This document shows, one piece after another, positions 1 through 64,000 of a DNA stretch of 64,000 nucleotides. The stretch's first letter is position 1. The number at the start of each line of letters is the position of its first letter. This DNA comes from Amoebophrya sp. A120. Its lineage: Eukaryota > Protista > Dinoflagellata. The notes under the pieces are model-generated. The model saw only the letters and a program-made list of their open reading frames with translations. It was not told where the DNA came from and made no database searches. The translations under genes and the position numbers were made by a program. Where the stretch lies: positions 3,222,437 through 3,286,436 of the forward strand of contig CAJINV010000006.1 in NCBI GenBank assembly GCA_905178155.1, given 5' to 3'.

Positions 1-3000
1 GGTTCCAAAGGAGTTGACGCGACCTGTCGTGCCAAGCCGCCACTCGGGGGCAACGAAATTTGCGTCAAGATGCTATGCAGTGCAACTAGGTCTCGGTCGG
101 ACGAGGGGTGGAAGAACTTAAGTGAGTATATTACTTGTCTGCAACTTCTCGAAAATCTGTGTTGCATAACCGACAAGAAGAGTGCAGCTTCGTTTGTCAT
201 GCACAAATGAGTTTCGCAATTTGCTTTTCCTTTTGCAGTACGCAATGTGCATCAGTACGAGAGACGGCCCTCTTCTTGAATGAAGCTTGTCATGCTTGTC
301 TGGTTGTAATTCAAATCTCTGCAACATCACGAGTTCTTTCCAGACCCAGACGTATTTGCAGTGGATAGGCCCTCAATGCTGTCGATTCAGTCAACCCATT
401 CGCCGCGATCCCTCCTCCGAATTTGAATGTCTATCCGCCAGAAAAGCACAGCCATACCTGAAAAAGAAACGAATTTGCGTTGCGGGGGGTTTTAGCTAAT
501 GCTCAGCATGACAAACTGAAACTTTTTTGGTTGTATGTAGTTCTAGAAGTAGTCCTAGACCTCATGACCCAGGAAGACTACGACTCGGTTCTGCATGACA
601 GAAAATAAATTTCTCTGTCTCTAGTGGTGTGGTCTGGTCTCCGCTTTCGCAGAGTGGCGCCAAGAATTTGCTAGCACCGCAACTTCATTTCCTTCCTGGT
701 ATAAGTATGGCTGTATTTTTTTGTCGGATAATCCTCTCGACCCAGTCAAGCGTTCTGTGCAAGGCGCTGTGGTGGGACAGGAAATGGGCCAGGATGCGCA
801 GGATGAGTTTCTGCAGTTGGCTGCCCTGGTATGCAATGCAAGTACACAACACGACACTTCTCCCCCGTAGTTCCCGAGATTGTATTGCAGACGAAGCACC
901 ATCGAGAGAAAAAAAATGGCTCTCCTCAGCAGGATTGGGTGACGAGATTTACAACAACAAGGCATATTAGGTCATCAAGACGGTAGTAGCCAATTTCGAT
1001 TCGCTCTGAGTACCAGCTGCTTCGTGTTTACGTACAGAAGCGGCACCCACAGCGAAGCAATTCCATTCATGTGTATGAAGACATCAAACTCACAGTGGTC
1101 ATCTTCTACGCGGTGGTGTAGTACTCAGTTGCATTGCATACCCGGATTCCACCCAATTGGTTAAAATCGCGGGGCAAAAGAGCGGACAAGAACTGTACTT
1201 CGACGACGCACTAAACCGGGTGCAGCACGCCGTAAACATTGGGTATCTGCAGCGGTTGCAGAACTACCTCTACGTGCCTCTTCGCGGATGGATCATTGCC
1301 GAGGGATTCTTACCGCCCAAACTGGTGCAAGTTCTCAACCTGGCAGTTGAGGGTGCCATGACGTACATCGCCGTGGTGGCCTACGGCAGTGTGTATCCAA
1401 TGCAAAAGTTGTATGACGCTCGTACTTCTAAATCTAGTACAATATCGTGATGACGCATGACAGATTTTCCTTCTATAGCTGATTCTGCATGACAAACTCC
1501 ATTCTCCCTTCTCACGATGAAATTTGTGGTGCAAAACGTTGCGTACGAGCGCGATTAAGGATGTTTTTGCAATGCATACCCTGCCTGCCATCGCGATTCC
1601 CCTGGCCATTTTTCGCGCTGCCGAGTTCTATTGCTCGAGCCAGGAGGAGGAAAAAGCGAGCACGGAGGAGGGAGAAGACGCTGCAGTCAAGAAGAGCGGC
1701 GGATTGAGCCGGAAGTCGTTCTGTAAACTGCTCAACACAGCCAAAAACAAGTTTCCGGGGACCACCCACGCAGTGTACGGCGTCATGAACGCGCTCAACT
1801 TTCTCCTAAGCATTGCAAAAGTAGCGTACTTCTAGTGGGAATTGCATTACAAATTTTATTATCAGAGCCAAAAATTGAATTTGTACATGCTGATTCAGCT
1901 AGTAAAGTAGATTTGTCATCATGCGGATGCGAGGCTGCAATTACTACGACTGCGATAGTACTTTTGCAGTGCATATCTCCTTACCGGCAGCAACCTCGTG
2001 GGCGCGGCCAAGGAATTTTTTCACTTTGCGCACGAAACTTTTCTCAACTGGGAAACGTATGGAAGTGTCAGAATCGAAATTGACAAAATCGAAAAATTTG
2101 CAATGCGTAAAATGTAGGGCACGCGTGGCCTGTGTTGGGGAGCAGGCAAATGTGACCGATTGCAGGCCTGTTTAGGGGAAGGTAATGCGCTGCCAGAGTA
2201 GCATGACAGAAGCAGTGTTCTTTGCCCAAACAGCATGACAGACTGGATTTTGGTTGCCCAGAAACTTGTCATGCGCCACTTGGAAACTGAGGCTCGAACT
2301 GGTTTCGACTTTATGCATCACAAATTATTTCGATTTTGCTGATTTCGATCCTGACGCTTCCATAAAACGGTGAGAAACGTTATCGGGGATGAGCGGGCGA
2401 TATCAAATGCACATATGTCTGGGTCTGGAAGCATGAAGCCTGTCATGCGAAATCTGGAGCACAAAAAAATCTGTGTTGCATGAACGCCAATATTAGAAAC
2501 CCAATTCTCACTAGGCAGAAGGCGCATTTCTCATGCGGAATAGGCATGAGGAAGGTCTCAAAAAATCTGTACTGCTTCTGCGTGCATTACAGACCATGAC
2601 GAGTGTGGTCCGCGAGATGCATGACAAATCTTGCAATTTTTCACCCCCAGACATCTTTGCATTCGATAGGCGAAACAAGCGGAAGCCGTGCTGGCTGCCG
2701 CGGCCGCTGCGAAAAGCGTTGCGTACTTGGAGGTGAAGCTCCTGCGCGCGTGCGGCTACGAGGTATTTCGATCGGGGGCGAAAAAGCTCGCTGGCGCACT
2801 GGCGGAGGAGTTTTCCTGGGGGGACTGTCTCGAGCTATCCACTGATGAATTTGTATATTTCACCTCACGTCCCCCTCCGCCCGCGATCCGTCTCTGTCAT
2901 TTGTAACGAACACACGGAGGACGAGAAAAACTGGTGCTCACCAGCATGATCTGAAAACGAAATTTGATAGACTAGACCTAGACCGTGCCGAGTTCCCATT

Positions 3001-3429
3001 TTCTTCCTTCAGAGGTTGATATTAGGTGAGCAACATCTATGCATGATGTGCATGTGCATCTTCTAGTACAATATTACGTTTACAGTACCGAGCCATTTGC
3101 TGTTTCTCGTGGGCGCTGTCATTCTCGACGGATGTGATAATATTTACACAGCATAACTGCGTTCCACCAAGGAAATCATCGACCCCGAAACTGGCGCGCT
3201 TGTCGACGCCAAGGGGCTACGTGCTCGTTTGAAGGGGCGGGGGAAGGAAATCCGCGAGAAATTCAAAGGGGGTTGCAAGCTGCTCGGCCACGGCATTCAC
3301 AAGCTATTTCACTGGAAGAGCCACGACGAAGAAGCGGCGGGCGCAGCAGCGGCGGAGGAAGTGGACGAGGGGCCGAATTTCGACATTCTGCAGCGCAATG
3401 CAAAGGAATCCATCAAACCGGCCTCATAA
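1..3429 (+). CDS. 3' part of an unknown Cys-rich/membrane protein, tandem paralogue of 4810..8472; split by 8 introner-type introns
   Basis: Spliced exons read ATCRAKPP..EICVK, NPFAAIP, EFLQLAALDS, YLYVPLRGW..LVQVLNLAVEGAMTYIAVVAYGSVPAIAIPLAIFR, GDERA..AKSVAY, DPETGAL, collinear with the downstream gene; stop at 3427-3429. Confidence 0.85.
74..367. mobile_element. Introner, degenerate family A
   Basis: tatgcagtgcaa...tttgcagtggata; TSD gatgc/ggccc; frame restored versus the paralogue. Confidence 0.65.
432..730. mobile_element. Introner
   Basis: TIR tatccgccagaaaagcacagccata; TSD atgtc/atcct. Confidence 0.75.
830..1140. mobile_element. Introner, B-like
   Basis: tatgcaatgcaa/ttgcattgcata; TSD cctgg/cccgg. 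Confidence 0.8.
1394..1578. mobile_element. Introner, family B
   Basis: TSD gtgtg/ccctg; restores GSVPAIAIP. Confidence 0.8.
1807..1975. mobile_element. Introner, family B
   Basis: TSD tctcc. Confidence 0.85.
2058..2364. mobile_element. Introner, family D
   Basis: TIR tatggaagtgtcag; TSD aaacg. Confidence 0.9.
2401..2668. mobile_element. Introner, family A
   Basis: TIR tatcaaatgc..atgtctggg; TSD ggcga. Confidence 0.9.
2836..3155. mobile_element. Highly degenerate introner
   Basis: tat...ata ends; TSD cgagc/actgc; restores LERSTKEIIDPETG. Confidence 0.6.
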
Positions 3430-4323
3430 TAGCGGCAGCGCCAGCGGAAGGAAGATGGAGGAATCATCTGAGGCTTGTTGACTGAAGTTGCCCGACAAGA
3501 ACGAGATGACCTTGAGGCATCGTTTAATTATTTTTGTCACTTCTACATCTACTACAGAAGCGAACTTCTCACAGTTTTTCTACTTGCAAAAAATTTTGTT
3601 TTATTTAGTTTCCGAGTTTCAAAAATTAAAATGTAAATGTTCCACTTTTTCTACGCAGTCTCCGATCGCATACCAGCCAAGTAAATCCTTCTCACACACA
3701 AAAGAACTACACATCACGCCAACTTCGTGAATTTGAACAATTTTCTGAATTTCCCCGTACGATGAACATCGAGAGACAAACATTAACATACAAAAAGAGT
3801 CTACAAATTAAGAGTTTAGGTAGGGTAGTATTTGCGTTTTCAGATTATGTACATACTTATGAGCAGTACTAGACAATAGAATTAAATCGAATTTCAATGA
3901 TCGCATGACACAGTGACTGGGGCTGCAGTGCGACGTGTGTATCTTTTCCAGCTCCCATCTTTGTACTTTTTGTTTTACATACAGACCATAAGATAGTACA
4001 AGTACAACAGTCCTGAGCTACCATGTCTTCATCCTTTTCTACCGTGAAGAAAAAAAGAGTAACAACTGCATCAATCAAACTACAAGGTGTGCATGATTGT
4101 ACTTATTTACCAAACGGCAGCGGAAGTGTAGAATTCATTGTGCGGGCACACTGTCCACGGACTCGGTCGCTCTCGCTCGAAAACACAAGCACAGCTGACG
4201 GGTGTAGGTACTTCTCTCTGTCCCACCTGTTTTGATCGTACTTACCTACTATTTCGGTTCTTGATGCCCCATAAATGATTTGTATCGGTAGGTGCGGCTA
4301 CTTGTCCTCCTAATTGCAAATAT

Positions 4324-4809: not shown

Positions 4810-7800
4810 ATGACAGACGGCAACCCCAACATCTCCAGCCAAGATTCGCCATCACCCCGTCGTGCTGGAGGCAGCCTCACCAAGCAAAAACTCTCCACCT
4901 CCCTTCAAGAAAGGCAAGAAGAAAGGAAGCGGCAAAAGCTCAAAAAGAAGATCACGCGGAAGAACGAGGCCGCGGCGGCTTTAGCAGCCTTTTCACGCTC
5001 CTCTTCGTGTTCGGAGGATGTTGCAGCTGCTCACAAGGAGGAAGGGGAGAAGCAGCCGGAACAACGAGAGCTGAATCATGACGAGGAGAACAAAACCAAA
5101 GCGGCAGACGAAAATCTTCGTACTACTGCCAGCACATCAGTCCATGATAAGTCTCGACGCCACTTGAACCCGCATAATTTACAATCAGATGATGTTGGGA
5201 ATAAAAGTGCCGCATACTGGACCGTTGGAATTAGCCTCATCATGCTGCCCTTTCTCCTCTACGCGGTGATACTGCTTTGCGTGGCGAAAGGGGGCCACGA
5301 CAATCAGGATGATCATGAAGGTGTCATCAAGAGCACTCCTGGCCAAGAACATCATGGTTTTCTTCGGGGTAGTACTTCATCGTCGCAAACTAGAGAGCGG
5401 AAGTTCCTGGCACCGACACCGAGCTTGCCTGAGGAACCACAGGACAGGTATGTCCTAAAGGATGAACAAAAACAAGCAAAAAGCGGTGTTGAAGATGGAG
5501 CAGAAGCAGGTACTGGAGGAGGGTCATCTGCTGAAGATTCATCTGAGGAACAAAGCATGTCTACCGTAGCTACAGCCCCAGTGGAAAATGTTTTGGAAAC
5601 CACCAGCAAGGAAAACGAGAACGACGGGCCAACACTCGTGAACAAACTCGCACCAGAATATGGAAGCGAAGTTCTTTCGGACGCGAAGATGAGCGCGGCG
5701 TTTTTAGAACAAGATCAACTCCAGCGACGAGCGACAGAAGTGGGAAAGATCGACGTGGTCCAAATCATGGAAAGACAAGGGGATGAAACTTTTGAACAAC
5801 CGACTCTTAATTCCTCGACCATTTTCCTCGGACAGCCTGCAGGAGGTGCTGAAAAGGTGATGAGTGCAGCTTTAGCCTCCACTTCGACCAGCTTCCTCGA
5901 CGTGGCGCGGCAAGAACAGCAACGCTCTTTCGCCAGTCAGTTGAGGTTGTATAAAGAGCAGAATTTGAAAGCCAAAGCCCCTTTGGCTGTGCTTTATCAG
6001 TGCAGGTACCCGGACGAACGGCAGGAAACCATTTTGGACAAAGCGGCGCGGGGAATTACTACACCCGCACATCAAGATGGTAGCATACCCGCGGGAACTA
6101 CCCTGGAACTGTACGACGTGCCGAAGCGGCAGTGCAGTATGCCGCAAAAAAAAACTAGTAGCGGTTTTTTCTGCTCGTGACCGTGGTAAAGGTAAACGAT
6201 GAATACTTTTTGACATGATAGAAAGATGTGTTTCCTAAGTTCAGCACATGAAGAAGTAGATCACAAAACGAAACAAAAGCGCCGCTACTACATTTTCCCA
6301 CTGGATTCCGCTGTCCGAGTGCACCAGAATCAACGATTGTTCCTCTTGGCTCGCGATAGTACCGATTCACAAAGTAAACGGGCAGAAAATTCCCTCCTGC
6401 CTGCTTGGAGGAAAGCACGCAAATCCGTTTGCACGACTTGATCAACTTCCGTTTCCAACCGATTATGGCCCAGACAAGTGGGAAATTTTCTGCGCAGTGC
6501 ACGTGCACTCGGGTAGTGAGCCAGGGCAAGGGGTCGTTTCCACCGCGCGTGCATCTCCTACACCTGTAGTCGCGCGGCCTTATGGGCAGCAGGACGCTGG
6601 CACTGGTTTCGGCATGTGGGATGCGTTCACCGCTGCCCTGGATTACATTTTTGACGACGACGAGCCGGGAGCGAAGGACGCGTTGGTTTACGCAGATGAT
6701 GACGACGAACTGGAGTTTGGTGATGCATCTGGTGACCATGGTCGTCTTGACCTCAGCGAGGACCCATTGCACGGCGCGGACTCCACGACCAAAAATCCGC
6801 TGGCAAAGGCCTTGCAGCGGCACGGCACCTGTGGCCGGCACTGGTGGTCGCATTCCCGGTGCCGGTGCATGCGATGGGAAGGACCAGGCGAAAAGCGCAA
6901 GCATGGGCATCATCTTGTCATGCACAAACCCGAAGAAAGCACCAACGGTTTTGCGTTGACTGCGGTGGTGGATGCGCAGTGCCCCCGGAGTGCAAAAATC
7001 AATTCCGTCTGTAGGTCTGACTTCGGATCCGGACAGTGCATCTTCGAATGCAGAACCCGGTATTGCCAGTGCGTTCAAGACAACGGAAACTTCGCTTTCC
7101 CGGAGGGAAACGCCGCCTGCACAAACCGCTGGGACGGGTTCTCGTGCGGCGTCGGAACAACTGCCGCAACGTGCCGGGCGAAGCCGCCCCGGTTCAATCC
7201 GGACGAATTGTGTGTGATGGCCATCGATGCCGCAGAAGCGATTAACCCCTTCGCGGTCGTGCCAGATGCGCAAGTTCCCATCCACCCTGAGACTCAGCTC
7301 CAGGCGCGCGCGATCGGAGGTTTGTATGGGGAAGTGAGCGAGAAGCAGTTTTTCGAATTGGCGACTTTGGATTCGAACGCGATGGTGGCCAAGGCCAGTG
7401 AGACCTTCCACACGCATAAAGACTTCTTAATCGATGCCCATGCGCATGCAAGCAAGTTCAGTTCTCTGGCCTACTCTCACCGCGTGCGCGAGTACATCTT
7501 CGTGCCCATCCGCGGGTGGCTGCAGGCCAGTCCGAAGGTGCCAAAACAACTGGTCCAGGTGCTGAACTTGGCAGTGGAGGGGGCTTTGACTTACATGGCT
7601 ATGGAATACAAATTCATTCTTACCGTACACGTACAAATAAATGCATGTACAAATTTCGCTCGTCACTTAGAATCTCCCACTTGTAAAAATGCTGGTTAAG
7701 CTTGAAGGGTTTTTTGTCATGCAGAAACAGGAGTTGGAGCATTATTTGTACGCAGTGTGCGGGACGAACTTTCTCCTGGATAATGGCAGTCGTGGCATAC

Positions 7801-8472
7801 GGGAGTGTGCCTGCCATCGCGATTCCGTTGGCGATCTACCGGTCTCTGGATTTTTACTGTACGGGCAAGGTGGCCGAAGCCGACATGTTTGAGGAAGAAG
7901 AGTTGGATATCGTTCAGAAACAGCAGAGACTTCATCTCTGCGGGCGGTTACTGGACGCCAAGGACAGGCACCCCAAAACGACCAAGGGTGTGCTTGCTTT
8001 GGTGCGGACGCTCGACCTAATCCTTACCGGCAGCAACCTCGGTGAGGCTGTGAAAGAACTGTTTAGCTTCGCAAAAGAAACGGCTTCCGCCTGGGAAGTA
8101 GTCAAAGCTGCTATCGGTGACGAGCGCGCCGCCGCCGCCGAGGCCTTTGTCGCCGCGGCCGCGGCCGTGAAGAGCCTGGCCTACGCGAAAACGCTTTTGA
8201 TGCGGCAGTGCATGGGGGATGCCTTTCAGGCGGGGGTGAAGAAGATTGCCGGGGTGGTTGCGCGGCATTGGTCGCTGGGCAACTGCCTGGAGCGAACCCG
8301 AAAGCGGATCAACCCGGAGACCGGAGCGCTCGAAGATGACGAGGGGTTTCGGAACCGCTGGCGGCAAAAGGCTCACGAATGGAAGGGGAAACTCAAGGCG
8401 GTCTGCCCCAGATTCCATCGGCACGGAAAAGAGCACGATGAACCCGCGGCCGTGGCAAAAACTCCGGTTTAG
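4810..8472 (+). CDS. Unknown ~1,037-aa protein with a predicted TM helix, Cys-rich region and hydrophobic C-terminal domain; exons ~4810-6136, 6498-7599, 7788-8472
   Basis: ORFs 4810..6180, 6497..7699 and 7702..8472 join in frame (3114 nt) after removing a GT-AG intron 6137..6497 and introner 7600..7782 plus one TSD; hydrophobic YWTVGISLIMLPFLLYAVILLCVA. Confidence 0.8.
7600..7782. mobile_element. Introner, degenerate B-like
   Basis: TSD atggc; restores TYMAVVAYGSV. Confidence 0.85.
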
Positions 8473-9814
8473 GCCCGCTAGGGGCCCCGTCGCGGGGACC
8501 ACGACGCCGTGGAAACTCTAGAAGTTGTTGGTGACGCGCGCGACCGGAGTTGTCGGACACCCCCGCGGCCCAGGGGACGTCGTCCGCGACATCCGTGAAG
8601 CTTTCAAGCTGACTGCAACTACACCTGCGAATTTTCACAACTCTGTCATGCGGTGGTTCGTGTCAGAATGCGTATGTGGTGGGTGGTTCATCTTGTCAGA
8701 ACTACAGAATTTTGGATGAAAAACGAAAATGAAAATTTTGCTTCGAGCTGTATGAAAAATTTTGCTTTCGAAAAAGTTGTACCTGCAGAGTTTGTTTTTT
8801 TATTTCACGAGAAGCTCGTGCCTCCCATGAATGTCAGTATGATATTTTTTTCCCCAGCTACTTTTTACTGCGCACTAAAGTTCACCATGCATTTGCGTGT
8901 GGCAAAGTGTACTTAATTTTGATTACATGAAGGACCAAATGAAAATCACGAAATAAAACATCAGGGAAAAGTAGAGCCTCTTCGCCGTGTTGCTTTCCCT
9001 CCGTACAGTATGAGCTTACAGATATGGGAACGATAAAAGACGATCAAGATAGTTGGCAGATAGGAAACATTTGTAGTTCCTGTTCCTCAACATATGACAA
9101 CCACACAACAGGAGCAATGGAAGTCGTTTTCTATGATCCAAACAAGTTCGTTTTGCAGTTGGAGCTTCCAGCAACTGCCTGGAGGTGTTTCCTGTTAGAT
9201 TGTTGGTCACGTCGACAACGATTCGGTGATGTTACTTTCCGTTTAGTTTTCGGTCACCTGGAAGTTAGTTGTAGCCTCGTACGTCGATTGATGTGCACAT
9301 CTTCGATAGTGCAACGAAGCCATTCGGTCTTGTTTCCCTTTCGGAGCTATGTTTCTTCGCTTGTGTAGTCATTTGTCGGTCAGCACTTCGTATCGCGAAG
9401 TCGTATCGTCCGTCCACCAAAGTCGTGGCCTCATAGAAGTAGAACTAGAAGATTTTGCAAGTTGTCGCGCCTCATCGTGCGTTGCGTCCGATAGCGATGT
9501 CTTTTTCGTCCGTGTAGTGTGAGGCCTTTGTTTTGTGTACGTATCATCGTTTCATCTTATTCACAACCGAAACCGCAGGAGGAAAGTCTCGATAACTGCT
9601 TTCCTAAGTATTTTCCCCCCATAAGTACTGTTTTGTAGAGTTTTACTTTTTATTTTAACCACAAGCACCACTTGAGACCATCAAAAAATTTTAGTACATT
9701 CGTATAAGTAGTTCAACTCAGAATCTCGCGTTTTCCCAAAGACTCTGACTTACATCGGGCATTTTCATTTCACATCGAGAACCTCCTCCCTTCACACGCA
9801 AACGCACCAGCACC

Positions 9815-12049
9815 ATGAAGAAGTTCGGCGCCGCCCAACTCCTCGCCACTCAGTGCGTCGTCCTGGTGTCGCATGAAGCTGCCCCTGTCGTCACAACCGT
9901 GCTGGCATTTAAGGCCGCGAAGACCGCCCGCTTGCCGTTGCGGAACCTCAACGGCCGCGACCTGCTGAACAAAAACATCAAGCGCGGGAAGAACCAACCT
10001 TCGAAATTGACCGCTGCGATTACCGACTTCGCCTCGGCGGTGTTTGACCGTGCGGCGGGACTGGCGACGGCTTTTTTGTACGGGACGAGAACGACCGACG
10101 AGCAGCAGGCCACTGCTGCAACTCACGAACGTCTGCAGGAAGGGGCTGCTCCTGATCTTTCTTACCACAAGGAGATCATCGGAACAAATAACGTTGCGCC
10201 GCACCACGGGATCAACATGTTGAAGAACGGCACGATGGCCGATGCTTTTACTTCATTCCCTCCTTCTGATGTTACGGAAGATGTTGAAATCGACGTTGTG
10301 CAAGAACAGCAAGTTGCACCACAGCAGGACAAGAACCATGTCGATGCGAAAATTGGCATGAAGACCTCCAAAAGTCCTGGGGTTCAGCAGCACAAACCGC
10401 GTGGTCGTCTTCCGGCCAAGAACAAGATCTTCGGAAAGATGAAAAAACACTTTCCGTTTCAGCTGCGGTTGAAGTGCAGCAAAGGGGCAGGTCGTGCTCC
10501 TGTGCGGAAAAACAAATTTCCGTTTGTTTTGCGGCTGAAGTGCAAGAAATCTTCTGTCCGGGGAGAGGTTCTTGTCCGGCGCCACAAGTTGCCCTTTGTG
10601 CCGCGTTTCAAGTGCAAGGTCTCGGCTGGTGTCGTGCGGCGCAACAAAATTCCATTTGTCTTGCGCTTGAAGTGCAAGTCTTCTGCAGGAACCGTGCGCC
10701 ACAACAAACTGCCGTTTATGCCGCGGCTGAAGAAGTGCAATGTCTCTGCGGGGGTCGTGCGCCACAACAAACTGCCGTTTGCGCTGCGGCAGAAATGCAA
10801 GGTCTCTGCGGGGGTGGTGCGCCACAACAAACTGCCGTTTGCGCCGCGGCAAAAATGCAGCAAGACAGCGGGAATGGTTCGTCGCAACAAGTTGCCATTT
10901 TCTCCGCGTCCGAAGTGCCCCAAAGCGGCGGGAATGGTTCGTCGCAACAAGTTGCCATTTCCTCCGCGTCCGAAGTGCCCCAAAGGGGCGGGAATGGTTC
11001 GTCGCAACAAGTTGCCCTTCGCTCCTCGCTTGAAATGCAGCAAGACAGCGGGAATGGTTCGTCGCAACAAGTTGCCCTTCGCTCCTCGCCTGAAATGCAG
11101 CAAGACAGCGGGAACGGTTCGTCGCAACAAGTTGCCTTTCGCACCCCGCCTGAAGTGCGGAAAAGCAGCGGGCATCGTCCGTCGCAACAAGTTGCCCTTC
11201 GCGCCGCGACTGAAGTGCGATGAAGCAGCGGGTATTGTCCGTCGCAACAAGTTGCCTTTCGCACCCCGCCCGAAGTGCGGAAAAGCAGCGGGCATCGTTC
11301 GTCGCAACAAGTTGCCTTTCGCACCCCGCCCGAAGTGCGGAAAAGCAGCGGGCATCGTCCGTCGCAACAAGTTGCCGTTCGCGCCGCGGCTGAAGTGCGG
11401 AAAGGCAGCGGGCATCGTCCGTCGCAACAAGTTGCCTTTCGCACCCCGCCTGCAGTGCGGACAAGCAGCGGGCATGGTCCGTCGCAACAGGTTGCCGTTC
11501 GCGCCGCGACTGAAGTGCAGGAAGTCTGCTGGTGGGATCGTACGCCACAACAAACTACCCTTCGCGCCCCGGTTTAAGTGCAAGAAGTCTGCTGGGATTG
11601 TTCGGAAGAACAAGCTGCCATTTGCGCAGCGGCTTACGTGCAAGAAGTCTGCTGGGATTGTTCGGAGGAGCAAGCTGCCATTTGCGCAGCGGCTTACATG
11701 CAAGAAGTCTGCTGGGATTGTTCGGAGGAGCAAGCTGCCTTTCGCGCCTCGACAGAAATGCAAGAAGTCCGCGGGTACCATTCGCCGAAACAAGTTGCCC
11801 TTCACGCCGCGCTTGCAGTGCCAGAAATCCGCCGGTGTCGTCCGCAGGAACAGGCTCCCTTTCTCCCCGCGCATCAAATGCAAGAAATCCGCTGGGGTCG
11901 TCCGCAAGAACAGGCTCCCTTTCTCCCCGCGCAACATCAAATGTAAGAAATCCGCCGGCATTGTCCGCAAGAACAGGCTGCCATTCGCTTCTCGGCCGAT
12001 TTGCCGCGAGGTGGCTGTAGCGGCTCGGGAGTCACGGATGGCGGCATGA
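9815..12049 (+). CDS. Intronless 744-aa highly basic protein with ~26 tandem 20-aa Cys-containing repeats (KCxKxAGxVRRNKLPFAPRL)
   Basis: Single long ORF; 60-bp unit repeats with many synonymous differences; hydrophobic N-terminal segment. Confidence 0.85.
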   Translation: MKKFGAAQLLATQCVVLVSHEAAPVVTTVLAFKAAKTARLPLRNLNGRDLLNKNIKRGKNQPSKLTAAITDFASAVFDRAAGLATAFLYGTRTTDEQQATAATHERLQEGAAPDLSYHKEIIGTNNVAPHHGINMLKNGTMADAFTSFPPSDVTEDVEIDVVQEQQVAPQQDKNHVDAKIGMKTSKSPGVQQHKPRGRLPAKNKIFGKMKKHFPFQLRLKCSKGAGRAPVRKNKFPFVLRLKCKKSSVRGEVLVRRHKLPFVPRFKCKVSAGVVRRNKIPFVLRLKCKSSAGTVRHNKLPFMPRLKKCNVSAGVVRHNKLPFALRQKCKVSAGVVRHNKLPFAPRQKCSKTAGMVRRNKLPFSPRPKCPKAAGMVRRNKLPFPPRPKCPKGAGMVRRNKLPFAPRLKCSKTAGMVRRNKLPFAPRLKCSKTAGTVRRNKLPFAPRLKCGKAAGIVRRNKLPFAPRLKCDEAAGIVRRNKLPFAPRPKCGKAAGIVRRNKLPFAPRPKCGKAAGIVRRNKLPFAPRLKCGKAAGIVRRNKLPFAPRLQCGQAAGMVRRNRLPFAPRLKCRKSAGGIVRHNKLPFAPRFKCKKSAGIVRKNKLPFAQRLTCKKSAGIVRRSKLPFAQRLTCKKSAGIVRRSKLPFAPRQKCKKSAGTIRRNKLPFTPRLQCQKSAGVVRRNRLPFSPRIKCKKSAGVVRKNRLPFSPRNIKCKKSAGIVRKNRLPFASRPICREVAVAARESRMAA
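10450..12005 (+). repeat. Coding tandem repeat, 60-bp unit, ~26 copies
   Basis: Visible 60-nt periodicity (gtcgcaacaagttgcc recurring in register). Confidence 0.95.
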
Positions 12050-53509: not shown

Positions 53510-54299
53510 GAATCATGGTGCAGCGTCGGTGAGGAACAACTTCAGGTAGGAGATTTTACTGTCACGTCAGCGATTCGGAATCGGGTGAAGAGTGGATGAA
53601 ATTTTGAGGTGGGAGGTGAGGAGAGGTGATTTTATTTCGGATGGAGTGGCTTGAGGTTTACGCGTCTCCTCATCCTCTTGAAGATGTTTACCCTTTTTCT
53701 TTACACCAGCGTCGTTCTTGCATAGAGCAAGCAGGATGAACTTCTGTAACTCTACATAATCAACTTTCAAGCGAGACGACGTTGCTGTGTCTTCTTTTGA
53801 TCTACTCTATGTAGTTCCTCCTGTAGCGGAAAACTCTTACACGCAAGTATTGATTCTAATCTGGCACCGTTGAAAAGCTTTTGGTAATAAAAACGAACTT
53901 TGAGTTGCTAGAGCTAGAGGTAGAACTACTACAAAACAAGAACCCATTCAGTATCAGTACTTTTTTAACGAGGACACGACGCCAGTACGAAAGCAGCTCG
54001 ACTGCTAGTAGTGCAGTAGCTGTGTCGACGAAAAGACCCCATGAGTTTGTCGAGAAGTAGTATCATCTGGAATGCTCGATGAGGACTCGTTCTCAATTTG
54101 ACGAACTTTTTTACACGACTGGCGACATCAATTTTTTTTTGAAATGAACAAGAGGCAGCTCCTCGTACAGCTCGCAGGAAACGGCGTTGGCTGAGCTGTG
54201 CAATTAGTACTATCACCTTGTTCGTCTTTGTCATTCTTTTGGATGCTTTTCGGTTTCGTTTTCATGGTCGGCGATCGTTTTCGTTGTTGCTCGCAGCAG

Positions 54300-56160
54300 T
54301 ACGCCGCCGCGGGCCACTGGGAGGGTGGCGTCGCGCCTTGGCCAAGGCCTTGCGCCGAAGTTTCTGGGGCCCTATGTTGTGACGTCGCCCAGGCCCCTAG
54401 GTGTTGGCGTGCGTACTGATCGGGCTTTGCTCGGGCGCCGTGGCGGCCTGCCCGCCCACGCGCGTACGGATGGAACGGGCCAGAGCGGAGACGGCAGGAA
54501 GGACGCCGCGGGCATCTTTTGAAAACACGGCGCCCGCGCTACCGCCTGCCCCCTGTCATGGGTGCGCATGGGCCCAGCGTGTGAAGGCCCCCGGGGAAGG
54601 GCGTCGCGCCTCATTTCGCGCAACATGCATCCGCGCCGAGCAAGCTCCGCAAGCGTAGCCGAGGGCTTTGGGCGCCTTATGTGTTTGGCAAAAGGGCGGG
54701 CATGCGATTCGCACCCAGTGGACAAATCGCAACCAGCTGCGCACCGACCGGGAGATCATGTCTGGGCGCGTGGCCGCGCCGTCTGCAGTCTGCCCGATGC
54801 CGGGGCCGGCCATTGCGGTTTTTGTGGTGGGTTGCGCATATTGGGGCGCCCGTTTGTTCTTTTGGCGTTTGAGTGGAGGAGCCGCGTGCTGCTTACTGAA
54901 GAACGGAGATTCAAGATGGAAGCCTTTACTGCGGCCATTGCGAAAAGTGCCGCAGAACAAATTACGTGGCTGGAGCAAAAAGCTGCGCGCTTAAAAAATG
55001 AACTCTGCGAAGAAAGGAGCCGGCCCGGGCGGCCCAGTGGGACGACGGAACTGCCGCGGTTTTCGCCGCCGCGCTTCCCGAGTGTTTGTTAGTTTGTGGG
55101 CGCCCCACTGAATCAATTGCGGCGCCCGGGAAACGATAAGGCAGCCCGCGGCACGGGCCGCCACCGTGGAATCCGGGCGGCGCGCGTGGCGCCCGCTTCC
55201 TGCAGGCCACGGCATTGCTGGGGTGAGGAAGGGGGTTGGGCTTCATCCGGATAGCGACCCGGTTGGGGTCGTTGGGGTGGGCGCCCGCTTTCGGCCGCGC
55301 CTCATCCCGCAGGCAGGGAGGCGAGGCGCACGCCTCGGGGGACGTCTTCGATCGACGCGTTGCCCGGCCTCGGTAGCAGGGGCGCCGGGGCGGGGCTTGA
55401 TCTGTTCACCTTCTCGACCGACCCCAGCCACTTGAGACGTTGCCACTTCTTGCGACGAGAAAACAAATAGCCGGGCGCCCCCGGCCCGTAGTGTTTGCCT
55501 TTGAATATCCGCCCCGCGCCGCCCGCCCGGCGTGGCCCTTCGTTTTTATTCTTCATGGCCGCCCCCCGGTGTGTGCGCGCTTGTCTACTCGGCTGCCCCC
55601 TCCTGTTTGGGTAGCCCGGGCCGTCTGGCGCGTCCTGCGAGCGTGCGGGCGTTTGGCTTAGCTTCTCGGTTGCCGGCTGGGGCGGCCCTCCCTCGGCGGG
55701 CCCGCCCGCCCCCCCAGAATATGATCGGCGCGCGCGCGCAGGTTGTCTTCTCCTGGTGCGCCCGGCCGGCCGTGTGGTGGCGTGCGTCGGCGTGGGGGGT
55801 TCCCGCCGGGTCGCACGCTCGTTGGTTGGTTTAGCTCTCCCCGGTTGGCGCATAAGGGTGCTGGCTCCGCTTAATGTATGCCGCCACTCATTGGCCCACA
55901 GACACTCACAACATGGGATGTTGGACGCCTCCTGGGCGGCCGGCCTATCAATCCTCGAGCGGGGGATGTCCCGCAAAGATGACAGAAACTTTTTGGACAG
56001 AGCTCGCATGCCTTCGCCAGAGAGTCACGGACGCATGTCTGCCGACGTTCCTTGCAAAGGCCCGGCGCTGGGGTTGTTTGTTTTTTTATTGTGGCGCAGT
56101 GAGGTGTCTTCTTTTCATTCTCACGCAATCCTCTTTCACCCAAGAAAAAAGGTCCTCGTT
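54300..56160. other. GC-rich, compositionally distinct intergenic block (possible decayed mobile element)
   Basis: Abrupt rise in G/C runs relative to the flanks; no convincing ORF or terminal repeats. Confidence 0.4.
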
Positions 56161-56412
56161 TTAGTCGCTTTTGATTTGGTGCTGTGATTTTTTCATCTAC
56201 CTAACCCCCGCGACGCTCAAAAGGAGCAGTGAGTGTGAGTGCCAGAGCTGGCCCCGTTTCAGTTTCTATTTCCGATATGATCCTATTTTGTTTTTCAAAC
56301 AACGAACAAGAACACGATCCGCCTCCATCAATGAACTTTGTCGATGATTTGAAGTCAGCGATTTCTACTTTCGTACAGCAGAACATAAACAAGAAAGGGC
56401 GCGTCTATTACT

Positions 56413-59400
56413 ATGAATTCTCTCTCGTCTACTTCCTCCAAAGCCCCCTCCACATTCATCTCAAATAGAAAAGACAGTCTCGTCGGAGGACAAACGAATC
56501 TTCACGAAGATAACCAACATGTTGACCACTCGGACTCCTTTCGAGAAAACGGTCGCGAGCATGACGGAAGCACCACGGGGGCCGCCGGGGGGAATTATGC
56601 GTCCCATGGTGTGGCCCTTAACTCTTCATCTGTTCCCGTGGACGTCGCAGCCACCAGCTCATCCGACGAAGAAAAAGAAGATGCTGTTGCTGACGACGAC
56701 CTCCCACCAGAAGACTTCGATCCTGCACGAGGACCCGCTAGTACCTCCAGCGAGGAGAACAAGAGCCTCCAGATCCGCATCGTGCATTTGGATTCGACCG
56801 ACACGGCCCAGGGACCAGTCGTTCGCATCTTCGGCCCGGTATGGGAGCAGGATCTTGAGGAGACGCGAAAGGAAGACACTTTGCAGCAGCAGCAGCAGCC
56901 CGCCGCATTGCAGAAAAACGAAGAAAATATTAAAGAGGCGAGTGACAACAGACAAAATGGGTTTGATGTTCATTCAAGAAGGAAGAAAACGGTCGGCAAT
57001 ACTAAAAAGCATATCAAGAAGAAGAAAGACAAGTCCGGCTGCGTGTACATCCGAGATTTCCTACGAGACTGCACAGCTCGCCCTGCCTCTCATTCGTATT
57101 GCATGACCGGCAAAAATACAAGCGTCAGCAAGAGTGCAGGTTTTGCATGACAGATTTCCAGAGGAGGATGGCAGTGCTGTTTGGGCTGCCATAAATTGTC
57201 ACGTAAACAGCACCAAGAGGCAACGCAAAGCCTGGATTTGGTATTTTGCATGACAAATGGAAACGCGGGGGAGCAGGGGGAGTTGGGCACTCTGATACTT
57301 CCACCCGTTCGTCTACTTGAAAACATCTTTGTCCCCGCGGGAGCTGAAAAAGGATCTCCTTTCCCTACTCCACGAGCAGTTAGCGCTGCTGAAATGGCGA
57401 AGCAAGGTCGGGCATTTAATGGGCGGAGGCGGTGGGTGGAGCAATCGTAACTCTAACAATCCGCTGTCAAAATCTTCGTACCAGCAAAGCAACAAGTGTC
57501 AGCACCTCCCCGCCGGGTCCGTAGTCGCGGGGAGGAGGGATGATTTGTGGGTTCAGGGGAGACCGGATCTCGAGAGCATCTACGGGTATATTGACCGCGA
57601 GGCCCTTCTTGAGGAGGAGCAGGAGGAACAGCTTCTGCAGGAAAAGCTGTACCCTGTTCATGAGGCGTCTTCATCTTCCCGACTTCCCAAGCTCGTCTAC
57701 CAAGTTTTCACCAAATACATCATTTACATGAAGATTCTGATCGAGTCCCTCGGCCCGTACAGCAACCGGTTCCAACTTTTCGAGGCGCACATCCCGTACA
57801 ACTTGCATTTCCTGGAACAAACGAGGGTTGTCGGGATGGGCTGGATCAAAATCCAAAACGCACGAAGCAGGACGGAAAAGAACAAACTAAAAACCACGAC
57901 CTGTGACATTGAGGTGGAGCTGACGTGGAAACATTTGATGCAACAAAACGCGGGCTTGGACGTGGCAGACTCGGTGCTAGATCGGGAACACGTGAACGGA
58001 AATGGCAATCATAATTCGCAAGCCGGATCTTCTGGAGCAATATGCATTGCAAAATTATCGTACTAGTATAAACATAAACTGCGTGACAAATTATTTGCTC
58101 AAGAATAAACATGCGATTTGTACATGCTGTTCTTTTCCCCTAGAAAGTAGATCTGCCATGTATGGCTGCAATTAGTACGAGTACGATACTTTTGCAGTGG
58201 ATAAGCAAGCAACGGGGACAATTTGAATCCAAACGACACAATGATGTTGTTCCTACAGTCACAGAAATCCATCTCCGATGGAGATCTAGGTTTGAAAGAT
58301 AAGGAAAAACGGGGGGAAGGGAGGTTTGTCGAGCAAAACAACGCCAAAAGTAGTAGTTCAAAGCTGCTGGTGCCGCCCCCAGCGTCCGCCAACTCTGTGG
58401 CGAGCAACGGCAGTGGTTCTCACAGTGGCACGAACACGAGCAGCTATGTGAAACACATGGGGCCGCCATTGCGGGTTCTGTCTCTGCCGGAAGAGAAGCC
58501 GCATAGTACGCAAGAGGAAGACTATAAAGATTCTTCTTTCTTCCTAGACGACAGTCGGAATAACGGCGACCACAGTACTTCTAGAAATCACGACCGTTCT
58601 CATCGTCCTGCCGCAACCAACACATCCTATTCCTCCAACCAGCCCTTCAAACAGGACATTTTGAAAAAGCACTGGCTGGTAAAAGCGTTGAAGGGTTTGT
58701 GGATTGAAGAGGGTATCCGGTGCTACAACAACGGCCTCGACCCGCCGGAGCCGGGGTCGCCGATCATGCGAGAGTGCGAATCCGCCGCGAATTCGCCAAT
58801 TTTGGATCCGGAGCAGCAGCGCCAGTTAAAGGCGTGGCGGGAAATGTTTGATTTTTTTGTGTCGAGAAAGCATTTGAATAGAGAAGGGCACGACAAGAAA
58901 AACAAAACGGGACATGCGCGCGGCGGTCTAGGTCGTCGCCGAAGAAGTAGATCTAGTATCGACAGTGAGGAGAAGCTGTTTTTGGAAATGGAAATGAGCC
59001 GGGATTTGCTAGATGCCGATAGGAGCGCGCTGCACGAAGATGACAGTTCTTTTAACAACAACTCTTCGTCGCAATCTGGCGAAATGAACAGGAAGCGAGA
59101 AAGAAGCCACAGCAGCAATTTTTCCAGGATGTTGGATATCTCCGCTGTGGAGGACCCGGCTACAGCATCGTCGGAGAAGAGCAAGAGTGCCGGCAGCTCT
59201 TACGACGAAAAGAGGAACATCAAGTCACAGTCTGGCGGATCTTCACCTGCAGGCGGCGACAAGAACAAGCAGAGATCTAAAAGCGACAATGCCGCAGCCG
59301 CCAAGCCGGGAAGATCTAGATCTTCGATAGTACCCTCCGCTTTTCAACCTGTTTTCCCGCCGTCACAGGCGTTTGCTCAACGAGGCATCAACGCAGCAGA

Positions 59401-62400
59401 TTCATCAAAGCAAGCTTGTAAGCACGTGGATAAAAGTCAAGACGCAAGAGGACAACAAGACGCTGAAATGGCGAAGGAACAGCCTGCCGACCCGGAGTGG
59501 GTGCCTAGTCAGAAGAATAGTCAAGGTCGTGCAGCTCTGCCACAGGCAGCAAAATCGGTGCAACTACCTCCATCGCATTCGCAAGAGCGAGAGGCTCCAC
59601 CTCCAAGAACAAGTCAAGACGTGGACAAAAAGGAATCATCGCGGGGGTCGCAGAGGACGCAAAGTTTGCCGCCGTCCGACGACGTCGAGCAAGAGGGCGG
59701 TGGGCCGCGGAATGGTGCAGATACAGGAACAGGAGAATTGCTGGCAGCCGGCAGTATGGTCACAGCCACTGAGAGGAGGCACCAAGAAGAGGAAGATGAA
59801 GATGTTATCATGCGCGACGACGACCGACGCAATTCTTCTTCTCCTCCTCCTTCACCGAAGAACGCACGGCTATCATCGCCGATGAATCAGTTGAACGATA
59901 GTCAACATGCCGAAGAGAACTACCACCACAGCTACGAAGAGGAGGAAGAAGATGCCCGTTACGTTATCCTGAGTAAAAACGTCCCCATACCAGAGTCAGG
60001 ATGGGGATTTTGCAACACAAACCTAGGAGTTTTGGGAGTCACGCATGACAAGTTGCACTCCGCAGTGTAGTGCAGGCTATAGCAAGGGCAAACGCATCAG
60101 AAATCCATCTGCTCATCCTGTTCACAGCATCACAAATTCCAATACACGATTGGAAATGGCTCTCATCCTCATGGGGATGAGCATTACAAGTCTTCCTGTC
60201 TTTGCAAATCTGCATTACAACTCTGGCGTGGGGACGTTTTTACTCAGGATATACCTGGTCGGGCTAGATGGGAGACTCTACGACGATCCGGATGGGGAAC
60301 TGCAGAGAGAGATCAACATATCCTGTGTAAAAACGTACCCACACCAGAGTTGTAATGCAGATTTGCAAAGAGAGGAAGACTTGTAATGCGCATCCTCATG
60401 AGAGCCATTTCCAATCGTGTTTTGGAATTTGTGATGCTGTGAACAGGATGAGCAGATGAATCTGTGACGCGGCTGCACTTGCTGACCTGCACTACACTGC
60501 AGAGTGCAACTTGTCATGCGTGACTCACAAAACTCCTAGGTTTGTGTTGCAAAATCCCCATCCTGACTCTGGTGTGGGTATGTTTTTACATAGGATACAA
60601 CACCTCCATTATTCAACAGACGCAGGCAGAATTCGTGGCGCATAATTATTCGCAGCCTGACAACTACCACACTGCACGTAGAAGCACAACTGGCGGCGCG
60701 CGTCAACAACTGAGTGACGGAAATGAAGGGGATGTTGTGATGAGCAATGCTGACGATGACCTTGAATTGGGACCACCACCCCCTCCTGCCAGTCAGATTG
60801 TGAATCGGGACATGGATCACGACGATGATGACGAGGAACAAGAAGAGGGGGAGTCTCGTCCTTCTCCAGGTGGATTGTTGAATAGCGATGAATTATCCTC
60901 CTTCGACAGACGACCTATCAGCCCTGTAGAAGAACTAGGCGCAGCGCCACAGGTGGACATCGTCGCGGAACAGGTCGTCATCGATGCCTCCGTCATGCCG
61001 TCGCAGCAACTCGCCATGCCTGTCGCGGCTTCCCAAATGCTGGCCATATCTTCGCAATTATTGGCTTCGCAGGATCATGAACAAGAGCAAGACACCAGCT
61101 TCGCTTCGCAAGATGAGAATTCCATTCCTGCTATCCAACCTCCTGCCTTGGAAAATTATCAACAATTTGCTCGTGCGGAACTACAACATCCAATGACTGA
61201 GGATGATCCAAACGCCTTTCTGTCGTTTCTCCACGATCAGCAACACAACCTATTTCCTCAGAGGGGCGACGTGGACAGGAACACTGATGAAGACGGACAG
61301 GACGGGCATAGACATGCCGGGGAACAAGGAGCAGAAGATGAAGAAATCGACTCAGATGTCGAAGTGCATGACGACGACGATGATTTTTCCGACGCAGGTG
61401 ACCACATCGACGTGCAGGAGGAGCCGGAGATTCCGGAGGAAGAGGTGGTGCATCAAGGTGACGACGTTCTGGACGAGGATGTTGACATGGCATTACAAAG
61501 TGAAGACGAGGAGGAAATAGGTCAACTTGTGATGCAAGAAGACAGCATGGAGCTACAAAGCCACGACGATCTTGAGCTCCACGAACCGGACCCCATTGCC
61601 GGTTTTTCCGAAGTGGATGTTTTCCTGCAATCCGCACGTCCCGTGGACGCGATCGGATTGATGAAGCAGAAAAGAGGGAGAAACGGGAAAAACTACAACT
61701 TTCAGCAGCAGAGCCAGAGGTCAGGTGTTGGCGGATCATCATCTGCAGCTCCTTTGAAGAGCGCGGCACCACGAGGACCTGTAGTGGGTGGAAATGAAGA
61801 AGCTGGCCCGTATCATCTTCACGACGATGAAGCGATGTCACAACATCTTCCAGCGGGAACCGAGGAGGAAGACCAGATGATGATTGGAGGAGAAAAATTA
61901 CGACAGGAGCGTGAAGAATCTCCTTTGCAACGCACGCAATCTCTTGGGGAAATCACAACTTCTAGTGACGAGGAGGATCATCATGCGGGTCATGGTCGTG
62001 AACGTGAAGAGGCGGTGGCAGATGGAAGTGTAAATGTAAATGATGTTGACGCCGGCGTCGAAGGAGCAAAAATGAAGGAGGCAGCACGACCCAAAGCGAC
62101 GTCAGTATCACCTTCCGCCGATCGGGATCAGGAAGTTGACGGTCGTGCAGCGAAGGGAGGTGTCGGCCAGCAGACCAGTTGTGCTGTTTTCGCGTCACAG
62201 AAAAATGATGGTGATAGGAGTCCAGCAGCTGCAGTTCCTGAAGCAGCCTCAGGACTACAAGCTGCCGACCCGTCAGCACGGAAAAATACTTCTGCCGAGA
62301 GCCACGAACTTGAACAACCGAAGCACCGGCCCAGCAGTCAATCCTCCGGAGCCAGTTTGGAGATCTTGGGCGAAACCAAACCAGATAGCGTCGATGCTTT

Positions 62401-64000
62401 ATCCAGCAAGAAGCCCCCACTTCTACCCCCGCAGGTACAGCAGCAAGACGAAACGGTCGGGCAAGTCGACTCCGCCGGTAGGCTGATATCAAATACAAAT
62501 ATGTCTGGGTCTGGAAGAATGCAGGAGTTTGTCATGCAGATTAAGCATGACCCATGAGATCTGTGATGCATGCCCGAGCATCACAGGTTTTGAGCAGGTA
62601 CCCCAATGCCTAATCCGCATGACAAATCCCCTCTTTCAGTGACAAGAAGCGGGTCCTTTTGCTGGCGGTGCATGACAGATCTCGGCATGCTGTAGAATTC
62701 GCATCACAATTTCGAATCCTTCCAGACCCAGACACATTTGCAATGCATAACTGAAGGGCGCGATCAAAAAGGCGCCGGATAAGGTTTTCAAAAATTTGAA
62801 ATTCCTATGCACCGCAAAAGTATCGTACTAGTAGGAATCGCATCACAAATGTCCTCAGCATGAGAAATGAAATTTGTCATGCGGACGCAACGTGACAGAA
62901 AATTTTGTAATGCACAAATGCGATTACTCTTACTGCGCGATGCTCTTGCAATGCATAACTCCACGATTTTGGCAACGTGCTGATTATCGAGGCCTGCACC
63001 TTTGACAAAAAAGAACTGGCTATGATTTCCTGGCGGACGTTAGGCGGAAGTGTGGAAGCCGGGTGTATCTGTAATCGGAAATATGTGAGCCTGGATCTGT
63101 TTTTCAAAAGAGAAGAGGAGGCGGATTTTAGAAAAAGAAGCAGAGCTGGGGCAGAAGTACTCAAGAAGCGCGGAGATGGTCGGGGCACAGAAGGAGAAGA
63201 AGTAGAAGACGGCGCGAAAAAATTGCAGCTTCTACCCGGTCGTGGCCCGCCCAGCGGCCACGACGACAATTCCACCTCTCCAACTGAGCTGTTCCCCGGT
63301 TGCCACGAGGTCCCCATTCACCTTCCCTTCCGTACTGCCAAGCACGCGGGAGACGAAATTTGTCCCGCCGTGCTGCAGATGGCCGCGTCGCAGACGGCGA
63401 TGTTGTACGCATTTGAGCTGCTGGTGAAGTATCAACTGTAAAAATGTCTGGGTCTGGAAGAATTCATGTTTGTCATGCTTGTCTGGCATGACTCTTAAAT
63501 CTGTCATGGACGTTATCCAAGAGCTCCGTTTTTCTGTGAACCAGAAGCGCAGTTTGTCATGCAGAATAGGCAACACCTAGGAGCTCAGAAACTTGTCATG
63601 CTGAGCCAGCATTTGTAGCCTCATCACGAGACGCCACCCAGCATCACAAGTTCCCAGACCCAGACACTTTTACTTTTGATATGAAGCGGTTGGAGCCAAA
63701 TTTGCTTTTGAGCTACGACATCCCGGAGGGCCTGGGGCTGGTGATGTACCACGGGAGGAAGGAAAACATGCAGGTGAGACTGTCGAGAGTGCCCGCGGAG
63801 GAAAGAAGTTTCATCAATCCTTCTTTCGTTGCTGCTAGTGGTGGTGCTGTGGGACGACCAGGGACCGGAACAGGCGGTCCGAGGCCGGGGGGCGTGCAGC
63901 AGGTAGGCTTCAACCGAGGTGGTCAATTTTCAGGACTAGGACAACATCAAACTGCACCGATGCAGCAGTTGAACCAGTTTGCACAGCAGCTGCCTTACGG
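56413..64000 (+). CDS. REV3: 5' portion of a DNA polymerase zeta catalytic subunit (REV3-like), running off the window; 7 introners
   Basis: PVVRIFG..GCVYIRDFHPFVY, FQLFEAHIPYNLHFL..GMGWI, CDIEVEL, LKGLWIEE, a long disordered insert, then LVKRLEPNLLLSYDI..LSRVP, matching REV3 N-terminal and exonuclease-like motifs; start uncertain. Confidence 0.75.
57062..57297. mobile_element. Introner, family H
   Basis: TSD tttcc/cttcc. Confidence 0.85.
58041..58203. mobile_element. Introner, family B
   Basis: TSD agcaa. Confidence 0.9.
59965..60251. mobile_element. Introner, family C, inverted relative to 28497/32211/60319
   Basis: TSD tacgt/tacct; body is the reverse complement of the sibling copies. 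Confidence 0.93.
60319..60597. mobile_element. Introner, family C (young copy)
   Basis: TSD caaca. Confidence 0.95.
62487..62749. mobile_element. Introner, family A
   Basis: TSD gctga/actga. Confidence 0.9.
62806..62957. mobile_element. Introner, family B
   Basis: TSD attcc/actcc. Confidence 0.87.
63430..63681. mobile_element. Introner, family A
   Basis: TSD tgaag; restores LVKRLEPNLLLSY. Confidence 0.92.

Follow-up and report, generated by a model that had tools for sequence, protein, structure and literature searches.

The window analysed here is a 64,000-nt stretch of the Amoebophrya sp. A120 genome (assembly GCA_905178155.1, contig CAJINV010000006.1, positions 3,222,437 to 3,286,436 of the forward strand), in which genes for a formin, a cullin and other proteins are interrupted by hairpin-ended, transposon-like elements that are very probably removed from RNA, exactly and independently of GT-AG splice signals. 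The curated catalogue holds 83 elements of 136-323 nt, amounting to 19,712 nt or 31% of the window, in good agreement with the about 85 elements of 135-325 bp proposed in the initial annotation. It was built from a profile search, a blast search against the window and hand inspection, six degenerate copies being added by hand. Every long frame in the window lies on the + strand, and the host frames with their elements are as follows.

1-2903, + strand: first gene, open reading frame (ORF) with seven elements at 74-367, 432-730, 830-1140, 1394-1578, 1807-1975, 2058-2364 and 2401-2668
6260-8469, + strand: ORF with one element at 7600-7782
13339-29748, + strand: formin region (FH2 domain; Pfam FH2 E=1.3e-22 on exon 25538-25966) with 32 elements
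Formin region, elements 1-11: 13719-13944, 14868-15141, 15255-15429, 15485-15755, 15792-15962, 16162-16474, 16602-16760, 16860-17180, 18013-18162, 18409-18656, 19169-19491
Formin region, elements 12-22: 19955-20114, 20459-20710, 20792-21082, 21173-21440, 21470-21724, 21869-22121, 22196-22336, 22608-22761, 22809-23118, 23479-23723, 23767-24032
Formin region, elements 23-32: 24375-24660, 25347-25530, 25968-26186, 26240-26501, 26631-26795, 27118-27405, 27468-27736, 28141-28460, 28497-28775, 28802-28937
31272-36092, + strand: ORF with ten elements at 31629-31837, 32211-32489, 32699-33011, 33155-33424, 33597-33750, 33780-33924, 33988-34275, 34356-34662, 35120-35338 and 35676-35886
36215-38810, + strand: ORF with six elements at 36368-36636, 36942-37205, 37299-37441, 37487-37731, 37769-37915 and 37982-38303
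38864-39511, + strand: ORF with one element at 38925-39195
41704-53509, + strand: gene for a 2060-aa protein with C-terminal cullin, identical to Amoebophrya sp. A120 CAD7954020.1 (P0126), with 19 elements
Cullin gene, elements 1-10: 42357-42627, 43548-43687, 44412-44600, 45065-45289, 45714-45975, 46024-46302, 46383-46544, 46676-46930, 47613-47902, 48778-48993
Cullin gene, elements 11-19: 49227-49492, 50020-50275, 50379-50644, 50703-50984, 51185-51337, 51534-51747, 51838-52053, 52542-52691, 53034-53315
Cullin gene, seven canonical GT-AG introns, + strand: 47411-47555, 48028-48165, 48395-48563, 49043-49182, 49663-49871, 52293-52469, 52756-52931
56389-64000, + strand: family-B-polymerase-like gene with seven elements at 57062-57297, 58041-58203, 59965-60251, 60319-60597, 62487-62749, 62806-62957 and 63430-63681

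Removal of the elements is needed, because retention introduces a stop or a frame shift in 77 of the 78 tested. The host frames are open when each element is deleted together with 5 nt, one copy of its flanking duplication, while other removal lengths modulo 3 do not open them. Open frames of 345 codons (first gene), 674 codons (6260-8469), 1098 and 1232 codons (formin region, 10 and 17 elements, respectively), 792 codons (31272-36092) and 1981 codons (polymerase-like gene) are obtained in this manner. A model of the cullin gene, from which 19 elements with 5 nt each and the seven GT-AG introns had been removed ahead of any comparison, is identical to CAD7954020.1 at 2060/2060 residues, with all 26 junctions matching. 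The A120 annotation pipeline rests on transcript alignments (Farhat 2021, PMC7789003), and agreement at 19/19 element junctions shows that exact removal of element plus 5 nt gives the published dominant product.

Conservation points in the same direction. The cullin part, containing 11 elements and the seven GT-AG introns, is 68% identical to the A25 cullin without a stop, and A25 cullin is colinear with the element-free product at 11/11 element junctions, with no gaps. The motifs FQKS/LKEAF, HRK/LTWIHSQG and IDA/AIVRIMK, which had been proposed to re-form on deletion of an element plus one duplication copy, are indeed rebuilt exactly and align gap-free to this orthologue. Junction variants of +3, -3 and +6 nt fit A25 worse at 11/11 junctions and, scored against a profile, 43 of 44 variants are lower. 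Hidden canonical splicing from a G/TAT donor to an ATA/G acceptor (+3 nt) was also considered; it is frame-compatible but was rejected, as it gives a worse orthologue fit and is absent from P0126.

The dependence on 5 nt extends beyond the window. A single terminal inverted repeat (TIR) pattern recovered 149 loci from a metagenome assembly (541 kb; 476 kb after merging), holding 353 elements with perfect duplications in 279, one mismatch in 59 and two in 15. Where the flanking frames are clear (136 elements), 133 need removal of a length of 5 modulo 3. Among 22 pairs of ends with poor duplications, eight have clear frames, of which six need +5 modulo 3; the two that do not are an off-by-one end call and a 1087-nt pair which may comprise two elements. 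In L026, L053 and L061 the duplication is mismatched at 3/5 positions, so that effectively no repeat is left, and +5 modulo 3 is still needed. Repeat identity is therefore not required, which argues, in small numbers, for a ruler rather than repeat-guided joining. Two further elements, L058:5329-5608 and L031:4475-4802, are unusual in that one has an 8-bp direct repeat and the other a duplication displaced by 3 nt; both stay in frame if 5 nt modulo 3 are removed.

GT-AG dinucleotides do not mark the junctions. At any register within the duplication they occur in 3/83 window elements and in 15/238 metagenome elements oriented by a codon model, against 5.5% expected by chance; the elements thus neither carry nor co-opt GT/GC-AG in the manner of canonical introners. 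The codon model called 78 of 80 window elements + and none -, and 115 ambiguous metagenome elements were left out. The expectation that most junctions lack GT-AG at every register is borne out by 80/83 elements. The wider claim, of a machinery that ignores canonical signals, holds in that removal is GT-AG-independent and exact but not in full, as the 5' end keeps TA much like the genome's GTA donors.

This follows from a polarity of the element ends. In the window, 5' ends deviate from TAT eight times at position 3 and never at positions 1-2, whereas 3' ends deviate five times at positions 1-2 and never at position 3 (Fisher p=0.0008). The pattern was recorded from the window before it was counted in the 238 oriented metagenome elements, where 5' ends show 3 deviations at positions 1-2 and 9 at position 3, and 3' ends 10 and 2, respectively (p=0.012). 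The 5' TA and the third-last A are thus kept while the third base and the last two bases vary. Asymmetry along transcription favours oriented RNA-level removal over removal from DNA, since excision from DNA is not expected to depend on which way a gene is transcribed.

The tolerated 5' variants TAT, TAC and TAA parallel the GTAT, GTAC and GTAA donors of the cullin gene (five GTAT, one GTAA and one GTAC among its seven GT-AG introns). Two junctions with diverged duplications bear on the position of the cut. At the old element 46383-46544 (duplication GGAAG/CCGCG) the published protein needs at least four left-copy bases, which would place the cut after duplication base 4 or 5. At 52542-52691 (AAAAA/AAGAA) the K present in both the published protein and the A25 orthologue implies that at least three left-copy bases are kept, and the cut would fall after base 3, 4 or 5. 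With a register of 4, the intron would start N-TAY, in line with the three donor types of the cullin gene.

The anatomy of the elements is that of DNA transposons. A scan for direct repeats joined to 12-nt inverted repeats, agnostic to end sequence, gave 32 matches at repeat length 5 (0-2 in five shuffles), of which 28 begin TAT. Lengths 3, 4 and 6 gave 48, 56 and 8, also above shuffles and with mixed first triplets, an excess that we attribute to the same elements being caught in shifted register. Pairs of TAT and ATA that are 100-400 nt long and flanked by an exact 5-bp repeat number 54, compared with 0-5 in 20 shuffles. The proposed ends, TAT or rarely TAC, TAA or TAG at the left and ATA at the right, agree with the counts: left ends are TAT in 75, TAC in 6, TAA in 1 and TAG in 1, and the right end is ATA in 78/83. 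The 5-bp duplication said to bound each element is perfect in 58/83, carries one mismatch in 19 and two to four in six; it holds loosely for the oldest copies, those at 74, 432 and 1394 being mismatched at 3/5 positions.

An A occupies positions 11, 12 and 13 in 64, 65 and 69 of 77 left ends. By eye, at least ten sub-terminal TIR types can be listed, in support of the earlier view that at least eight TIR families share a single grammar, and 24 clusters have window members at 70% identity over 60% of length, family members within the window being up to 95% identical. The ends fold together; in 81/83 elements, 15 or more of the first 30 nt are paired to the opposite end, and the median folding z is -6.8 against eight shuffles per element. 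Most families are inserted both ways (A1, 18 vs 26; C, 13 vs 12), exceptions being one family inserted one way (11/11 assigned) and another skewed 29 vs 13. With TIRs, a fixed-length duplication, short length and multiple copies, the elements are likely non-autonomous DNA transposons resembling MITEs, miniature transposable elements with inverted repeats. The formin frame is also interrupted at 27790-28110, where one TIR-like end (27845) can be seen, but neither a clear partner for it nor clear splice sites.

Coding frames account for 74.6% of the window once the elements are taken out, and they contain all 83 elements (p about 3e-11; the codon model behind this test was trained on the same frames). 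Exons between elements are rarely 20 nt or shorter and pile up at 21-80 nt (1, 21, 32, 31 and 9 per successive 20-nt bin, among 110 gaps), consistent with a minimum exon size and insertion into linker DNA beside an earlier copy, a preference described in PMC9860276. No 10.5-nt periodicity was detected in exon lengths between elements. Such a periodicity does appear inside the elements. The motif AAAYYTGTNATGC is present in 427/436 elements, in both orientations, and copies on the same strand tend to lie a multiple of about 10.5 nt apart (mean cosine 0.36 vs 0.02 with a null SD of 0.13, each of 31 clusters being represented by one copy). The phasing is no more than suggestive; it points to a function in DNA binding, for example as sites for a transposase or in the phasing of chromatin.

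The motif was also considered as a possible mark of introns in general: it has 11 matches in 5/7 verified GT-AG introns, but is present in only 30/102 canonical introns predicted in the loci, by a predictor that calls too many introns in intergenic sequence. At least one such case is accounted for by the remains of an old element. In GT-AG intron 49043-49182, a 76-nt segment matches the interior of element 16602-16760 at about 88% identity but lacks the inverted ends; this is an element relic that lies inside, or has turned into, an ordinary intron. Eight long copies of 457-1255 nt (L022, L043, L044, L061, L064, L066, L073 and L006) have normal ends around unrelated cargo, and those of L044 and L006 share a cargo segment at 70% identity. 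A putative single transposase type serving all families is plausible. Three TIR patterns gave no match in viral contigs, searched with a viral carrier in mind.

Two loci of a related metagenome assembly, L101 and L102, are orthologous to the cullin locus and were compared over 630 nt each. They share window elements 49227 (100%) and 46676 (96%) at the same sites and differ from the window at two others.

49524-49528, + strand: empty target site TCCTG, directly followed in L101 by a 264-nt TAT...ATA element
47031-47035, + strand: empty target site GAAGA, directly followed in L102 by the start of an element, of which 189 nt are covered

Filled in the related assembly and empty in the window, the two sites carry what would be the signature of recent DNA insertion, the insertion polymorphism expected of MITEs, as judged from the left-side, near junctions; precise loss in A120 would be the alternative. 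At element 46676 the left duplication copy (46671-46675) carries a synonymous difference from L102 that the right copy lacks, which is what an exonic first base in the left copy would predict. At 46996-47000 CAAGG occurs once in the window and twice, with T between, in L102 (+6 nt, in frame), which may be the footprint of an excision from DNA or reflect a deletion in the lineage of the window.

The elements are the A120 introners of Farhat 2021, a class already published, and the link to Amoebophrya introners drawn in the initial annotation is secured by the identity of the host protein to CAD7954020.1. Farhat 2021 (PMC7789003) describes 29,850 A120 introners of about 240 nt without splice consensus, with an inverted repeat of TAT, seven variable bases and at least three A, and direct repeats of 3-5 nt, the legend of its Fig. 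S19 giving a 5-bp example. All of these traits recur here: the same organism and an A120 gene, inverted repeats that open with TAT, seven variable bases and a run of A, short direct repeats, and non-canonical repeated copies. Where that account has 3-5-nt repeats and variable splice sites, the window has uniformly 5 nt and an exact product. It also reports no transposase in A120 and argues against transposase mobilisation.

Gozashti 2025 (PMC12130899) classes A120 families mostly as 'TIR DNA, unknown' among 40 of the 58 A120 rows of its Dataset S7. Its family 38 is labelled 'Ginger; 5-bp TSD, TA/TA Termini', with ORFs resembling Copia/Gypsy, and its text states that the termini do not fit Ginger; this family is about 810 nt with ORFs, and no such element lies in the window. 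The TAT/5-bp grammar is thus largely anticipated by these two papers. Relative to the portions of Farhat 2021 on which we draw, what is added here is the empty sites, the end polarity, the register of 4-5 and the phased internal motif.

Other systems resemble the elements in part. Ginger2/Tdd transposons (Bao 2010, PMC2836005) likewise have TIRs and, in TDD-4/5, a 5-bp duplication, and the window ends are one base from TGT...ACA; they are TAT rather than TGTNR, with TGT at 2/166 window ends, and the TIRs are shorter. The RTATAY target preference is not seen, target composition being flat and T-poor, and no integrase-like DDE transposase was found in the 77 ORFs of the eight long copies, drawn from 0.5 Mb of sequence. 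Introners of Micromonas and Aureococcus (PMC9860276, PMC7789003) are similarly MITE-like, with duplication and TIRs, and clustered in genes, but they keep canonical splice motifs, which the window elements do not. Euglenid non-conventional introns (PMC12501133, PMC11282704) share an end-to-end stem, fixed spacers to the cut, duplication-like repeats and the lack of GT-AG; their CAG/CTG signature is absent from the window elements, whose end composition shows no conserved CAG and whose transposon origin is far more recent and obvious. SOS splicing (Zhao 2025, PMC12779559) is likewise an RNA-level removal, predicted here from sequence, of exonic transposons bounded by paired terminal inverted repeats without GU-AG, and the window elements have just such paired repeats in exons. 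It is an imprecise stop-gap, whereas removal in the window is apparently exact and needed many times per gene.

The identity of the hosts is uneven. Of the formin FH2, cullin and REV3-like hosts initially proposed, the first two are confirmed by Pfam; the third finds no such confirmation, the gene at 56389-64000 being weakly family-B polymerase (Pfam 21.8 bits, below the cut-off of 23), with Pol delta as its best PDB match (E=0.0035). The formin region is probably a single gene, its parts linked by predicted GT-AG introns. Cullin is C-terminal in the 2060-aa frame, preceded by about 1220 unrelated residues with no Pfam match in the exons scanned. The A25 cullin is 846 aa, and the published A120 model carries the same N-terminal extension as the window gene; the fusion may be genuine, or two genes may have been merged. 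A weak PRTase-like match (E=0.0075, below cut-off) lies at 38127-38807 in gene 36215-38810. The repetitive 766-codon ORF at 9749-12046 is open over long stretches of both strands and contains no element, and the intergenic stretch 54150-56150 is GC-rich (about 63%) and has no match in the metagenome loci.

Exact removal at the RNA level, by whichever route, is highly probable, and we put it at even chances that the agent is a modified, U1-less spliceosome which takes the paired ends, not GT-AG, as its ruler and excises the elements exactly from pre-mRNA. A120 keeps U2, U4, U5, U6 and 83/89 spliceosome proteins, while U1 is undetected (Farhat 2021, PMC7789003), and a review offers a precedent in Fritillaria, whose non-canonical transposon introns are removed by the spliceosome. 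On the DNA side, the elements may be spread by an enzyme of the cut-and-paste type, perhaps similar to an integrase, that would stagger its cuts by 5 bp and bind the element ends and the AAAYYTGTNATGC copies spaced near 10.5 nt. In RNA, the end stem would bring the exon ends together; the 5' cut would fall at N/TAY, or right at TAY, in place of the G/TAY donors of the genome, the conserved third-last A may serve as branch point, and the 3' cut would be set by distance, leaving one copy's worth of the duplication.

Several observations weigh against spliceosomal removal or parts of this scheme. Beyond TA the ends have nothing in common with ordinary donors, GT-AG being at chance at every register, and the choice between registers 4 and 5 turns on two informative junctions. 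The third-last A would lie inside the terminal stem of the predicted fold, where a branch point would be awkwardly placed; selection for U2 pairing next to it is not evident, TIR positions 4-7 being alike at both ends, and A-to-G variants at the last base are explained by G-U wobble alone. Enrichment of duplication mismatches at positions 1-3, seen in the window (8, 6, 5, 1 and 1), was not replicated in the 238 metagenome elements (19, 15, 8, 15 and 9; p=0.17), and the gradient was rejected as a signal. For mobilisation, none of the 77 ORFs of the eight long copies matched a transposase family in Pfam. The match to P0126 stands one step removed from reads and would speak for the dominant product only. 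Exon-only placement and orientation tolerance fit a nuclease and ligase equally well.

Such a spliceosome-independent route, in which a nuclease recognises the end-to-end stem and cuts at fixed offsets, the exons being joined by a ligase of the RtcB type in the manner of a more exact SOS or euglenid splicing, is possible if somewhat doubtful. Pairing of terminal inverted repeats sets off SOS splicing, which seldom involves GU-AG and acts on exonic, not intronic, copies (PMC12779559), and Euglena introns use a stem with fixed spacers (PMC12501133) and are released as circles (review); the exclusive presence of the 83 elements in coding frames, in both orientations, is in keeping with these traits. 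SOS splicing is, conversely, imprecise and leaves indels (PMC12779559), compared with one exact product at 19/19 junctions, and the kept 5' TA resembles local GTA donors. No evidence for AKAP17A, CAAP1 or RtcB was obtained for Amoebophrya, and our literature search returned no link of SOS splicing to dinoflagellates or of Amoebophrya to RtcB; for Amoebophrya and lariats it returned one review and one preprint on plant mitochondria. Self-splicing or self-cleaving RNAs might be suggested by the strong folding and by a motif common to 427/436 elements, but most families work in both orientations, interiors differ between families, as much as about 1 kb of cargo can separate the ends and the motif spacing follows the DNA helical repeat, leaving this route very improbable.

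Ciliate internal eliminated sequences offer the comparison for DNA-level excision in an expressing life stage. TA-starting, transposon-like ends in an alveolate and exact restoration of the target would suit this process, and the possible footprint in L102 shows that DNA excision may occur. That footprint is +6 nt rather than exact, the end constraints follow the direction of transcription, the second assembly has elements 46676 and 49227 at the same sites, and published work treats the elements as RNA-seq-supported introns (PMC7789003); excision from DNA thus has a slim chance of being the explanation. Imprecise removal, or splicing at nearby cryptic GT-AG sites with only the in-frame fraction translated, is made conceivable by an in-frame GT...AG pair within about 15-20 nt of the ends of 43/77 elements, the +3 product leaving frames equally open. 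We regard it as scarcely probable, as 34/77 elements have no such pair, the +3, -3 and +6 variants fare worse at 11/11 A25 junctions, P0126 is exact at 19/19, and genes with 19 to 32 sites could presumably not afford much error. That the genes are dead, transposon-riddled pseudogenes is suggested by the 31% of the window that is inserted DNA; with frames of up to 1981 codons intact after removal, it is contradicted by the conservation of the cullin (68% identical to the A25 orthologue, no stop) and the existence of an identical annotated protein, and is largely refuted, with next to no probability left to it.

In the portions of the prior papers on which we draw, the route by which published A120 introners leave RNA is left open. 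The polarity and register results name bases that can be tested: the 5' TA, the third-last A and a cut after duplication base 4 or 5. Somewhat short of an even chance, we propose that most introns of A120 undergo exact structure-guided splicing, with any base at the cut sites and in either orientation, which recognises no more than the stem formed by the ends, a UA on the 5' side and a single A on the 3' side, takes the measure of the 5-nt duplication from that stem, and is carried out by a U1-less spliceosome or represents the first exact and essential nuclease-ligase splicing of SOS type. A genome that accepts transposons at any exonic 5-mer would show intron flooding without a splice-site requirement.

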